Below are positions 2,565 to 9,245 of a DNA stretch of 34,640 nt, piece after piece. Below the pieces are notes generated by a model. The model was not told the origin of the DNA. It searched no databases and was given only the letters and a program-made list of their open reading frames with translations. This stretch comes from a virus. Lineage: Duplodnaviria; Heunggongvirae; Uroviricota; Caudoviricetes. Both the position numbers and the translations under genes were made by a program. Position 1 is the first letter of the stretch. Each line of letters begins with the position of its first letter. Location: positions 1 through 34,640 of the IMG/VR virus record IMGVR_UViG_2877285697_000008. One strand, 5' to 3'.

Positions 2565-3612
2565 TCACGATGTGCGAATAAAAAGCCCGGGCATTGCGCC
2601 AGAGACATGTGCATCCAGCACCCCGGACAGGGCGCAATATGACCCCGGTAATGAATGCTCTGAACATCCCGTAATGAAAAATTGTGGGGATGCTATATAC
2701 GTTCCGGTGGGAGTACTGGGCACTGAAATCCCCACCGGTCCCAGTCGTGAGCCTCTGTATGACTGCCCCCTGACAAGTCTGATGACTTTATCACCGTCAG
2801 CTTCTCCCTGGTACGCAGCAATAATCAGCCCGCCAATGTCAGGGTCTCCCCATCTGTTGCGGACAGAGCTCGCCACGATTCTGTAAATAATATCTTCTGT
2901 GGTTATATTTATTTTCACCCAGCCAGTCAGTCTGGATATGGGCCAGTAGCAGTAGCGGGTGTGATAAATGGGGCCGTTAATGCCGTAAAAAGTAAGGGAT
3001 TTGGCTCTGTACCGCGGTTCTGTTGTCTCAGGGCGTGCATCAGTCCACCGGATGCTGAGCACCCCTTCAAACCGTGTGTCGGGTATGATGATGTCGTAGG
3101 GACCAGCAACGGAATATTCACCTGGCAGCGCATTCCTTACCCAGGCCAGGAAATCACTCTTAGTGTCAAAACGGATAACATCTTCAGGCAGAAAAGCACG
3201 CCCAAAGCCGAATGCGCCGGGTATCGCCAGACGGCCTTTTGTCCGGTCGTAAATGTCGCTCTGTGCTTCCATCGTGGCTGCACTTTTCAGCCCCAGATTA
3301 TCCCGGGACTTCTGTTGTGCCTTTTCGCCTGCTGCTGCGATTTCAGACAGATGGTTAGCCGTTTTCAGAGTGCCGGTCAGCGCAGCATCAATGTCATTTT
3401 TGGCCTGTTCTGCTGCGCGGGCATAACCTGCGGCTGCCGCCACATCCTGCGCCGTCTGCTGTGCGTTTCCGGCTGCGGCCCCGGCGCTCTGCTGCGCCTG
3501 CGCCACCATTTCCTCAAAGCGTTTGACGACATCCGGTTTCAGGTCGCCCTCATCAGGAGCAATCAGAAAGTCATTCAGCGTGCCGGGCTTTGAGTCCTCA
3601 TATACAGCAATG
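2565..3612 (-). pseudogene. stf: Lambda Stf-like side tail fiber, C-terminal portion (gene split by IS66-family insertion)
   Basis: Native sequence resumes at 3612 with IAVYEDSKPGTLNDFL...RFEEMVAQAQ, matching the lambda Stf N-terminal region motif TITVYEDSQPGTLNDFL; the first ~31 codons of track ORF 2565-3704 are IS-derived. Confidence 0.7.
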
Positions 3613-3977
3613 GTAACCGGCTCATTTAAACCGTCTGGTCTGTTTCCTCCGGCTCTACAAAAATAATGTCCATCATTTTTAATGGACACTATCGTATGAA
3701 ACACCGGACCTGGATCACTGAAGCTTTACGTCTTCACTTTGAAGAACATTTACCCCGGGTTGTGGCCGGGCGTCGCCTGGGTGTACCAAAATCAACAGTT
3801 TGTAGTATGTTCGTGCGCTTTCGGAGAGCTGGCCTTTCGTGGCCTTTGCCCGCAGGCATGTCGGAGCAGGAACTTGATGCCTGCCTTTACGGACAATTTT
3901 CCACGGTACCAGTCGTACGTCCTGAAAGCACCGTTATATCCGAAGCCCCCGTGGTAAAAAAACGTCCCCGGCGGCCC

Positions 3978-5403
3978 TAATGCCAGTCAGTTAAGCAACT
4001 GACTGGCTCTTTTTCGGGGCTGTGGGGTATTTCCAGGGCCTCTCCTTTACCACTCTCGGGAAGGCCCTTCCCCTTCTCGTCGGTAATTTCACAAGTTGTC
4101 CCATACTTGCAAGATCGCGCATCAGCTCCGGTATACGTCCCGGTGAAGCGCCCTGCAATGTCATCAGCATTCTCATCACCATTCCGCATGATTCTGAGAA
4201 ACTCAGTTGATTCGGCCAGTAACCTTTCAGATGTTCCGCCATTTTAATCATCTGATATCTCACCAGATTATAAGCCAGTAAGACACCCCACAGCTCTTGC
4301 TCCACAAGCTCCGGCTTTTTACTTCTCAGCGTCAGCCTGCTCAGTTGCATCGTCTGTTTTATCTCCCTGTATCCCAGTTCGATTTCCCAGCGATGACTGT
4401 ACAGATCCGCCATTTCTCCTCCGGGGAAGCGCATGGCGTCCGTCATCGACGTCAGCAGATGGCAGACTTTTCCTTTGCGCGTCACGGTCAGCAGGCGGGC
4501 TGTCACTTCATTTCCCAGTCCCGGCCACTTTTTTCGTGCCTGCGGGCTGGTTTTCAGCTTCACCAGATGATCGCCTTTACCCAGTTTTCTGAGCTCTTCA
4601 TATTGCGCTCCCTTTCTGAGAGGTATCATCCAGTGGCGGTGTTCTCCCGCCAGGCTCCAGGCATTTAACAGTCCCAGTGAGTAATAACCTTTATCCATTA
4701 ACGTCAGAGTGTTATCGCCGGTTTGTTCTATAAGTTGCTCAGCAAGCTCATTTTCGCTGTTCTTCATCGTGCCGAAGGCTGCAGCCGTCAGCAGATGGCT
4801 GGTCAGTTCCATCTGGCAGACCATTTTGACCTGCGGGTAGAGCGCCGGGTTCCCGGCATGTGTCTGGCGGGGGAAGGCTGCATCGTTCTCTGGTGTATCC
4901 GGTGTGCGCCAGAACACACCATCGATGGCCAGCAGGGTCAGGCCGCACCAGTGCGGATGCGGCGTGGCGTTATGCCAGAGCTGCGCTGTTTTCGTGAACA
5001 CGCGGCGGACAGCCTCACTTCCCAGGCGCTGGCGGGCCTGAATAACGGCACTGGGGGCAACGAAGGGGCGATTGCCCGGCAGCATGATGTCCAGGCGATT
5101 CACAATCTGGTGAAGAGGTTCTTTACGCTCAAGCGCCATGCCAACAATACACCAGACCATCATTTCGAGGGGAAGACGGCGCTTGCGTAGCGTTACAGTA
5201 CCTGATTCGGCAAGGCAACGAGAGATGAGTTCGGGGTCGAGGTAATCCCCCAGAGAAGTCAGTGGGTTACGCAGAGAATCGTAACGGGATACCAGATCAA
5301 GAGCCTGTCCAATGTGCATAAAAAAATCCGGAAACAAGTGAGCGTTTCCGGATTCTTACACAGCCACTGGATCGGTCAACTGATCCTTAACTGATCGGCA
5401 TTA
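3978..5403 (-). mobile_element. IS4, complete copy (1426 bp)
   Basis: Termini TAATGCC... and ...GGCATTA; 12-bp target-site duplication CCCCGGCGGCCC at 3966-3977 and 5404-5415; single ~442-aa DDE transposase. Confidence 0.9.
3991..5319 (-). CDS. insG: IS4 transposase
   Basis: Protein begins [50 protein letters not shown], recalled as the IS4 transposase; the track ORF is extended 6 codons upstream. Confidence 0.9.
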
Positions 5404-5780
5404 CCCCGGCGGCCCAACTTCCCTCATGAGTTCAAAATCGCCTTAGTGGAGCAGTCACTGCAACCCGGGGCCTGTGTCGCACAAATAGCTCGTGAGAACG
5501 GAATCAACGATAACCTGCTCTTCAACTGGCGCCATCAATACCGGAAAGGTGGCCTGCTGCCTTCCGGAAAAAATATGCCGGCACTGCTTCCCGTGACGTT
5601 AACGCCGGAGCCGGATAATAAAATCCCGGCCCCCGCACAGGAACCAGAGCAGATAAATACACCGTCCGACAGTCTGTGTTGTGAGCTGGTTCTGCCGGCC
5701 GGAACTCTCAGGCTTAAAGGTAAACTGACGCCGGCGTTATTACAGACACTTATCCGTGAAATGAAAGGGAGCAGTCACTG

Positions 5781-6128
5781 ATGATATCTCTCCCTGCCGG
5801 TTCGCGTATCTGGCTGGTTGCCGGTATCACCGACATGCGGAATGGCTTCAACGGCCTGGCCTCAAAAGTTCAGAACGTCCTGAAGGATGACCCGTTCTCC
5901 GGACACCTGTTTATCTTCCGCGGACGCCGGGGTGACCAGATAAAAGTGTTGTGGGCTGACAGTGACGGACTGTGCCTCTTCACCAAACGCCTGGAGCGGG
6001 GCCGCTTCGTCTGGCCAGTCACCCGTGACGGCAAGGTGCACCTTACTCCGGCTCAGTTATCCATGCTTCTTGAAGGTATCAACTGGAAGCACCCGAAACG
6101 AACGGAACGCGCTGGAATCCGCATATAA
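5781..6128 (+). CDS. tnpB: IS66-family TnpB accessory protein
   Basis: 115-aa ORF with the family signature PAGSRIWLVAGITDMRNGFNGLA...FRGRRGDQIKVLW; start overlaps the tnpA stop. Confidence 0.85.
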   Translation: MISLPAGSRIWLVAGITDMRNGFNGLASKVQNVLKDDPFSGHLFIFRGRRGDQIKVLWADSDGLCLFTKRLERGRFVWPVTRDGKVHLTPAQLSMLLEGINWKHPKRTERAGIRI

Positions 6129-7500: not shown

Positions 7501-7535
7501 CGCTTCAATGGGAAATTGTTGTCGCCATTGTTCGA

Positions 7536-7838
7536 TTAACGCGTATTTTTCAGCGACTCCTGTGCAAAATACGCTGTTGCTTTTTTTAATATATCTCGCT
7601 CAAGGCGAGCTTCATTTAACGCCTTACGCAGTTGCAGAATTTCAGATTCCAGTTCAGCCACCGTGCGGGAGCCAGGAGTACCGAGCCCTTTTCTGGCGGC
7701 GGTAACCCATTGTCCTAAAGTGCCTTCAGGAAGGGATAATCGGGAAGCGCCTTCACTGATCGAAAGCTGATTTTCAGGAACCGTTCTGACAGCTTCGGCT
7801 TTGAACTCTTTAGAGTAACGTTGGGTTTTTCTGCTCAT
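7536..7838 (-). CDS. IS600 OrfA (HTH DNA-binding protein)
   Basis: 100-aa [23 protein letters not shown]... with leucine-zipper-like C-terminus, immediately upstream of OrfB. Confidence 0.9.
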
Positions 7839-9016
7839 TATTAGCTCCTTCTGATGCCATTCTATTTCAGGAAGGAGTGTCCGTTAAACTCAGGCTACCT
7901 CATCCGAAACTGGCCTGTTGCCGGTGCGACCATATCGTGCAGGCACCAGTACCTTCAAAACCCATTGCACGCAGTTATGCCGGAGCGGGGCTTCTGGCCC
8001 ATGTTGTCACCGGGAAATATGCAGACCATCTGCCGTTATACCGCCAGTCAGAAATATACCGTCGTCAGGGAGTGGAGCTGAGCCGTGCCACACTGGGGCG
8101 CTGGACCGGTGCCGTTGCTGAACTGCTGGAGCCGCTGTATGACGTACTGCGCCAGTATGTGCTGATGCCCGGTAAAGTCCATGCCGATGATATCCCCGTC
8201 CCGGTCCAGGAGCCAGGCAGCGGTAAAACCCGGACAGCCCGGCTGTGGGTCTACGTCCGTGATGACCGCAACGCCGGTTCACAGATGCCCCCGGCGGTCT
8301 GGTTCGCGTACAGTCCGGACCGGAAAGGTATCCATCCACAAAATCACCTGGCCGGTTACAGCGGTGTGCTTCAGGCCGATGCTTACGGTGGTTACCGGGC
8401 GTTATACGAATCCGGCAGAATAACGGAAGCCGCGTGTATGGCTCATGCCCGGAGAAAAATCCACGATGTGCATGCAAGAGCGCCCACCGACATCACCACG
8501 GAAGCCCTGCAGCGTATCGGTGAACTGTATGCTATCGAGGCAGAGGTCCGGGGCTGTTCAGCAGAACAGCGTCTGGCGGCAAGAAAAGCCAGAGCCGCGC
8601 CACTGATGCAGTCACTGTATGACTGGATACAGCAACAGATGAAAACACTGTCGCGTCACTCAGATACGGCAAAAGCGTTCGCATACCTGCTGAAACAGTG
8701 GGATGCACTGAACGTGTACTGCAGTAATGGCTGGGTGGAAATCGACAACAACATCGCAGAGAACGCCTTACGGGGAGTGGCCGTAGGCCGGAAAAACTGG
8801 ATGTTCGCGGGTTCCGACAGCGGTGGTGAACATGCGGCGGTGTTGTACTCGCTGATCGGCACATGCCGTCTGAACAATGTGGAGCCAGAAAAGTGGCTGC
8901 GTTACGTCATTGAACATATCCAGGACTGGCCGGCAAACCGGGTACGCGATCTGTTGCCCTGGAAAGTTGATCTGAGCTCTCAGTAAATATCAATACGGTT
9001 CTGACGAGCCGCTTAC

Positions 9017-9245
9017 CAGCAATGTCGCCAACGTTGTACTCGTTGCGCCAGTCCTGTTTCAGATACACACCATATTTTCCAGTCCGCGCATGGAAACAGT
9101 ATTCATCATCGTTTCCTGTCATCACATCAGCAACAGTGTGCATAACCACTTCCGGGGTGTTTACCCGGGATTTCAGAATAATATGGTATCCGGACATGGG
9201 GATACCTGCGCCATCAGTCAGCGCACCTGATATCACTACAGACAT
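9017..9245 (-). pseudogene. stf: Lambda Stf-like side tail fiber, N-terminal 76 codons (same gene as 2565-3612)
   Basis: MSVVISGALTDGAGIP... resembles lambda Stf start MAVKISGVLKDGTGKP. Removing IS66 plus one TSD copy (5412 bp, divisible by 3) restores one continuous ~422-codon frame. Confidence 0.7.

Follow-up and report, generated by a model that had tools for sequence, protein, structure and literature searches.

The DNA examined here, a window of 34,640 nt corresponding to positions 1 to 34,640 of the IMG/VR virus record IMGVR_UViG_2877285697_000008 (Caudoviricetes), comes from the 4.56-Mb chromosome deposited as NCBI CP026827.1, whose load of insertion sequences (ISs) is typical of Shigella and enteroinvasive Escherichia coli (EIEC). 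On its minus strand, a gene resembling side tail fibre (stf) genes is split between positions 2565 and 9245 by a three-level nest: one complete IS4 and one complete IS600 lie within ISCro1, an element of the IS66 family, and ISCro1 lies within the stf-like gene of a decayed prophage (Table 1). Our reading covered window positions 2000-9800, with element ends set by their inverted repeats; each element was then removed in silico, one copy of its direct repeat was kept and the result was translated.

Table 1. Parts of the nested insertion in the stf-like gene, and the second copies of its two inner elements (window coordinates)
Feature	Coordinates	Strand	Remarks
stf-like gene, 3' (C-terminal) part, including the left 8-bp copy	2565..3612	-	joins 9025-9245 to give 1269 nt, 422 aa
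ISCro1 target duplication, left copy CAGCAATG	3605..3612	.	single copy at the empty site
ISCro1, whole	3613..9016	+	5404 bp with inserts; CAGCAATG at 3605-3612 and 9017-9024
ISCro1, left segment: left inverted repeat GTAACCGGCTC..., tnpA 5' part (from 3666), left IS4 duplication (3966-3977)	3613..3977	+	100% identical to nt 1-365 of E. coli ISCro1 copies
IS4, complete, 1426 bp	3978..5403	-	transposase open reading frame (ORF) 3991-5337 (-), intact
ISCro1, middle segment: right IS4 duplication, tnpA 3' part (to 5781), tnpB (5781-6128), tnpC 5' part (from 6148), left TCC (6636-6638)	5404..6638	+	
IS600, complete, 1264 bp, IS3 family	6639..7902	-	orfA 7536-7838, orfB 6682-7500, both (-)
ISCro1, right segment: right TCC, tnpC 3' part (stop at 8986), right inverted repeat ...GAGCCGCTTAC	7903..9016	+	
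Right copy of CAGCAATG (9017-9024) and stf-like gene, 5' (N-terminal) part, ATG at 9245	9017..9245	-	
IS4 fragment, 777 bp	30859..31635	-	100% identical to 4627-5403 of the full copy
IS600, copy 2	31685..32948	-	same orientation as copy 1; 99.7% identical; flanks TCC / GTT, no duplication

Rejoined across the insertion, the interrupted gene measures 1269 nt and encodes 422 aa, with the Pfam domain phage_tail_N (PF08400) covering residues 1-131 (E 3.5e-69). Its neighbours are a Caudo_TAP gene (9269-9814) and a DUF4376 gene (2093-2614), and it lies where a myovirus-type tail module ends. It thus has the two features that mark Stf-type genes: a tail-fibre N-terminal domain, and a location at the tail module's end beside a gene for fibre assembly or a chaperone. 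Outside the N-terminal domain no overall similarity to lambda Stf was found; the closest full-length phage matches of the protein are in phiP27 (38.9%) and an Actinobacillus phage (47%). Because nothing past the first ~110 residues is close to lambda Stf, 'stf-like' is the safe label.

Uninterrupted versions of this gene are readily found. All 1269 nt are covered in 10 E. coli genomes at 96.1-99.8% identity, as one piece in nine of them (98.7-99.8%) and as two pieces in the tenth (96.1%). The intact gene of E. coli FDAARGOS_944 is 99.8% identical and is labelled 'prophage tail fiber N-terminal domain-containing protein' by the NCBI Prokaryotic Genome Annotation Pipeline (PGAP). In that genome, window segments 1-3612 and 9017-13000 are adjacent and overlap by exactly 8 bp, CAGCAATG. 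An unfilled stf site among related strains, which an earlier sequence-only reading of this DNA had named as a check on its own account, thus exists in FDAARGOS_944 and elsewhere, with five further empty copies in Shigella flexneri SFBU1023 and in ECMA0423, a record titled E. coli. The latter two genomes each carry two to three paralogous stf-like copies that are 96-99% identical, an arrangement consistent with several related ipaH-type prophage remnants per chromosome.

Freed of both inserts, the outer element is 2699 bp long and aligns without gaps over 2699/2699 positions with an intact ISCro1 on plasmid pU90-5, differing by 27 substitutions (99.0% identity). It has the ends expected of IS66/ISCro1 elements, namely imperfect inverted repeats starting with GTAA (left tip GTAACCGGCTC versus right tip GTAAGCGGCTC, with 10 of the 11 terminal bases in agreement) and an 8-bp target duplication. 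Excision also yields the consecutive tnpA, tnpB and tnpC genes of the family: TnpA matches NCBIfam NF038385 (IS66_access_TnpA, E 1e-88), TnpB matches PF05717 and NF033819 (IS66_TnpB), and TnpC matches PF03050 together with zf-IS66 and LZ (E 7e-104), its domains being LZ_Tnp_IS66, zf-IS66, the DDE_Tnp_IS66 transposase domain and DDE_Tnp_IS66_C. Copies 99.0% identical to the restored element carry the PGAP label 'IS66-like element ISCro1 family', and an isoform, by the ISfinder rule, shares at least 95% nucleotide identity with a named element. On this sequence evidence the outer element is assigned as a probable ISCro1 isoform.

The IS4 copy was inserted in ISCro1 tnpA between two copies of the 12-mer CCCCGGCGGCCC (3966-3977 and 5404-5415), which occurs nowhere else in the window and falls within the 11-13 bp usual for duplications made by IS4. 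Length (~1426 bp), terminal inverted repeats (~18 bp class; both ends start with TAATGCC, the shared ends being TAATGCC..TCAGTTAAG) and coding content likewise agree with IS4: a single DDE transposase of 448 aa carries the IS4 N-terminal domain PF13006 (Nterm_IS4) and PF01609 (DDE_Tnp_1) and matches NCBIfam transpos_IS4_1. The element is 99.2-99.6% identical to annotated IS4 copies, including 99.6% to an InsG-annotated IS4 in a lambda record.

IS600 was inserted in tnpC between the trinucleotides TCC at 6636-6638 and 7903-7905. Its orfA (100 aa, HTH_Tnp_1) and orfB (272 aa, rve) are separated by an A7G slippery run at element position 316, and its ends read TGAGG...CCTCA, so that it shows the orfA/orfB arrangement with a -1 frameshift site, the rve domain and the TG...CA ends of the IS3 family. 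The 3-bp duplication fits as well, since removal of the element with one TCC restores tnpC colinear with intact ISCro1. Identity to PGAP-named IS600 copies is 99.4-99.5%. In other E. coli genomes IS600 interrupts ISCro1 at tnpA nt ~198 (L007) or ~322 (L006), and because its positions differ among genomes, it has no hot spot in ISCro1.

Collectively, all three pairs of direct repeats abut exactly the element ends defined by the inverted repeats, and excision restores tnpA (225 aa), tnpB (115 aa), tnpC (523 aa) and the stf-like frame. At such ends, repeats of 8 and 12 bp are far above chance expectation, and the 3-bp TCC by itself has a chance of 1/64. Both inner duplications are nevertheless base-exact, because the restored ISCro1 is colinear and gapless with an intact copy, and the 8-bp duplication is base-exact because FDAARGOS_944 holds the exact empty site. 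Chance accounts for none of the repeats, the restored frames or the empty site. The architecture proposed in the sequence-only reading, with IS4 and IS600 inside an IS66-family element inside an stf-type gene, is borne out by these ends and frames: its 8-, 12- and 3-bp target duplications hold on realignment, tnpA and tnpC become continuous without the inner elements, as it had claimed, and the host gene recovered on excision matches uninterrupted E. coli genes over its 1269 nt. Boundaries, duplications, restored frames and the empty site are all direct observations, as is the recurrence of the IS4 site described below.

That IS4 site, at window 3945-3985 (ISCro1 nt 333-373), is used repeatedly, which the sequence-only reading did not notice. 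IS4 follows ISCro1 nt 365, with the same 12-bp duplication (nt 354-365), in E. coli MLI104K2 (outer 8-bp duplication CCAGTATG), within traD on plasmid pDLI.6n (outer duplication AAATAAAC) and between ynfM and asr in NCTC86 (outer duplication AGTTATTC). The same ISCro1 site holds an oppositely oriented IS4 in strain YL03 (L008) and in one draft contig (L011), and the presence of both orientations requires at least two independent hits. The same position is also occupied in other IS66 elements: in a relative 89-95% identical, beside ospD1 on a pINV-type plasmid (L029), and in an IS66 relic next to a tRNA-Phe island (L027), the relic junction being present in many E. coli at 96.7% identity. The 104-aa truncated TnpA produced by the IS4 junction recurs in 179 gene-index blocks and, among the 10 places shown, in at least seven unrelated gene neighbourhoods. 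This protein gives no count of orientations, since both IS4 ends start with TAATGCC and yield the same product, and orientation was read from DNA. Totals of a junction search at 80% coverage (752 and 311 records) were not used as counts of ISCro1::IS4, because they include the old relic inherited by many strains and the second query also takes in other IS4 sites with similar flanks. The IS66::IS4 junction AAAAAAACGYCCCCGGCGGCCYTAATGCC had no match in a scan of one genome per species, and for this reason the hot spot is documented in E. coli and Shigella collections only.

The sequence of the site resembles that of IS4 targets elsewhere. Six IS4 insertions outside IS66 elements were compared (ynbC-ynbB, fumC-fumB, mog-satP, fiu, tdk-adhE and tynA-feaB), and all six show a GC-rich 12-bp duplication, then 3 nt, then a run of five to eight T residues; the duplication ends in GGGG in five and in GGTG at tynA-feaB. 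An A-run often lies on the opposite side, and several of these sites resemble terminators made of a hairpin and a T-run. The lower strand of the ISCro1 site reads GGGCCGCCGGGG-ACG-TTTTTTT-ACCAC and differs little from the ynbC site, CATCCCTGGGGG-ACA-TTTTTTT-ACCAC. We infer from these alignments that the IS4 transposase probably recognises a terminator-like pattern, and early IS4 work reportedly agrees with such target recognition.

The IS4 hit in the window was therefore not random: ISCro1 nt 354-365, together with the A7 run, is a recurrent and independently used IS4 site in E. coli and Shigella. In its more specific form, we consider it probable that the conserved terminator mimic in tnpA, AAAAAAACGT-CCCCGGCGGCCC (codons KKRPRRP), is a specific landing site for IS4, which, inserting in either orientation, has recurrently and independently knocked out elements of at least four IS66 lineages in E. 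coli and Shigella. If true, nature would here offer an example of systematic targeting between two insertion sequences, IS4 landing on IS66 elements. A 'spectacular apparent insertion specificity' in target arms has been described for some elements of the IS4 subgroup (De Palmenaer et al. 2008, PMC2266710). No description of the ISCro1 site as an IS4 hot spot was found in the searched literature; the recurrent landing of IS4 in ISCro1 tnpA is the only point here for which none was found, and it adds modestly to what is known of IS4 site specificity.

Two loci from this survey hold related arrangements. In E. coli 720632 (L002, 5754-9890), an IS66 element 90-96% related carries IS4 at nt 577-588, with the duplication CGGCTCCGGCAC preceded by AATAAAATCC, and the canonical site is present there and empty; this position suggests that tnpA holds another IS4 target motif, weaker than the first. 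In YL03 (L008, 301-5773), an element of the IS3 family of ~1331 bp and IS4 both lie in tnpA of an otherwise intact ISCro1 flanked by the 8-bp duplication GCATATCT. The YL03 locus is thus another nest of three elements, and the window is not alone in having a multi-level nest in ISCro1.

We regard it as very probable that the nest is as described and also arose from the outside inwards. An isoform of ISCro1 (2699 bp) would have transposed into the stf-like gene in the region of codon ~75, creating the 8-bp duplication; IS4 would have entered its tnpA at nt 354-365, creating the 12-bp duplication, and IS600 its tnpC, creating the 3-bp duplication. The insertions leave the tail-fibre gene dead and ISCro1 non-autonomous with its ends kept; both inner elements appear intact. 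Entry of ISCro1 into the stf-like gene before the inner elements is the most likely sequence of events; the relative order of IS4 and IS600 cannot be set. The sequence-only reading went further and held that the insertions could be ordered from the sequence alone. Nesting, however, shows that IS4 and IS600 entered a copy of ISCro1, not that this copy was already in the stf-like gene, and the order cannot be read off when many loci hold ISCro1::IS4 composites that agree in the internal position and have separate 8-bp duplications. The same reading called the outer element immobilised. Its tnpA and tnpC are indeed broken but both terminal inverted repeats are intact, and 'non-autonomous' is the better term; proteins of another copy could in principle move it.

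Several points weigh against this account. The order of events is not directly observable, and no intermediate with stf::ISCro1 but without IS4 or IS600 was found in a search that did not include close relatives of the source strain. The name ISCro1 comes from PGAP labels of 99%-identical copies and not from the ISfinder reference. In addition, several other IS4 targets are flanked by A/T runs on both sides, the ISCro1 site on just one.

The best-surviving alternative is that ISCro1 arrived as a composite, already carrying IS4 and possibly IS600 from elsewhere, and was moved into the stf-like gene by TnpA, TnpB and TnpC of another copy. The many loci at which composites share this internal junction but differ in the outer 8-bp duplication make this conceivable, as do the intact ends of the window ISCro1. 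Independent IS4 insertion is itself frequent enough to explain recurrence, given both orientations and the hits at the same site in diverged IS66 relatives, and the ISCro1 variant of the window (27-33 differences, with a unique patch at nt 375-446) has not been seen with IS4 elsewhere. Moreover, the tnpC::IS600 junction is known at the window locus only: in an index of 153 billion genes, the junction protein of tnpC::IS600 occurs on one contig only, as does that of stf::ISCro1, and both one-contig junctions fit in-place events in this lineage. We therefore hold composite arrival to be unlikely.

Considerably less probable still is the import of IS4 by homologous recombination or gene conversion from another ISCro1::IS4, for example on a virulence plasmid, in which case the 12-bp repeat would have been inherited with the tract. 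An IS66 relative with IS4 at the same site does occur on pINV-type plasmids of strains that share the prophage gene, and the many repeated IS copies without duplications indicate frequent IS-mediated recombination. The 365 bp to the left of IS4 are identical to canonical ISCro1, and this arm is uninformative in being the same in all canonical copies. To the right of IS4, nt 375-446 of the restored element (window 5426-5497) hold 11 substitutions at three-base spacing within 72 bp, a pattern unique against all ISCro1 copies and relatives examined; matching neither the pINV-type element nor canonical ISCro1::IS4, it offers no visible donor tract. The patch looks like a small recombinant import in its own right, with no donor matched; comparison with the pINV-type IS66::IS4 element and other relatives gave no match, which leaves gene conversion neither supported nor excluded.

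An artefact can practically be dismissed, whether a chimeric assembly of repeated IS copies or chance agreement between direct repeats. IS-rich regions do misassemble easily and a 3-bp repeat is weak alone, but the source record forms one contig of 4.56 Mb and the six junctions are exact to the base; excision recovers four reading frames, a known empty site and an alignment to intact ISCro1 free of gaps. Insertion of ISCro1 into the stf-like gene, followed by IS4 and IS600 in place, is the most likely reading.

No record with the nest or with a close stf gene was present in the phage collection, and among complete E. coli genomes no more than 64% of window 2000-10500 was found in one place, so the filled site is absent there. 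The nest is base-exact yet ordinary for a Shigella-type genome, in which IS-in-IS nests are common: each of its elements is a known IS, with an identity of at least 99%, and the whole is a textbook outcome of IS expansion in such a genome.

The rest of the window shows the same kind of decay. The tail module (10730-23911) is 97.8% identical to Escherichia phage vB_EcoM-606R2 and is the only part that matches phages closely. An ORF of 388 aa with an ipaH-type NEL (E3 ligase) domain (645-1811, +) follows an ORF of 203 aa (1-612, +); at the same place FDAARGOS_944 (L001, 1421-3247) has a full 608-aa ipaHb, and the window ipaH appears, from its sequence, to be split or frameshifted. A 768-bp IS1 (17025-17792) lies within a large tail gene, perhaps the tape-measure gene, and is flanked by the 9-bp duplication CATTCGGTG; excision of this IS1 turns an ORF of 571 aa into one of 656 aa. 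A second IS1 (33103-33870), inverted relative to the first, has its own 9-bp duplication, CAAACACCA, and is a simple insertion. Three copies of IS911, each of 1249 bp, lie at 23909-25157, 26011-27259 (inverted) and 29610-30858; none of the three has a 3-bp duplication, which suggests rearrangements among them. Directly before the third stands TGAAGTGGC, which repeats the nine bases with which that copy opens; the third copy also truncates IS4.

Second copies of both inner elements had been described in the sequence-only reading as lacking duplications as a result of later recombination. For IS600 copy 2, with its unequal flanks, the absence of a duplication stands. The supposed second IS4 is instead a 3' fragment cut by IS911, directly abutting the end of the IS911 copy at 29610-30858, so that the remark holds for IS600 only.

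The nest marks a further stage in the decay of an ipaH-associated prophage through ISs and has little import beyond annotation, although it provides clean, base-exact examples of the duplications made by ISCro1 (8 bp), IS4 (12 bp) and IS600 (3 bp). For annotation and IS typing, the lesson is that calls such as 'TnpA' (104 aa), 'TnpC' (169 and 369 aa) and 'tail fibre' (112 and 379 aa) are pieces of three genes. Recurrence of IS4 at the ISCro1 site explains many assembly breaks there, and identical IS-in-IS junctions across genomes may lack common ancestry. ISCro1 nt 354-365 also offers a defined natural target for the study of IS4 site choice.

Compared with known systems, the outer element agrees with ISCro1, first named in Citrobacter rodentium and present in many E. 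coli copies, in its length of 2699 bp, the layout and sizes of tnpA-tnpB-tnpC, the GTAA... terminal inverted repeats and the 8-bp target duplication; it differs from E. coli copies by 27-33 substitutions, by one change in the right inverted repeat, and in being interrupted twice and hence non-autonomous. IS4 agrees with the insG element of E. coli K-12 in its 1426 bp, 12-bp duplication and one intact transposase, and its ISCro1 target differs from known IS4 targets in lying inside a coding sequence, at tnpA codons KKRPRRP, and not in an intergenic terminator. IS600 is like the Shigella element of the IS3 family (1264 bp, orfA/orfB, A7G site, 3-bp duplication), with nothing notable that differs. 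The stf-like protein departs from lambda Stf, matches to lambdoid Stf proteins spanning residues ~1-110 only, at 46-50% identity. As a whole, the window resembles other cases of IS-driven prophage decay in Shigella and EIEC in holding IS1, IS4, IS600, IS911 and ISCro1 within 35 kb, together with a broken prophage tail module and an ipaH gene beside the prophage, and it differs from the IS nests of those genomes in that its stf::ISCro1 junction is seen in one genome only.

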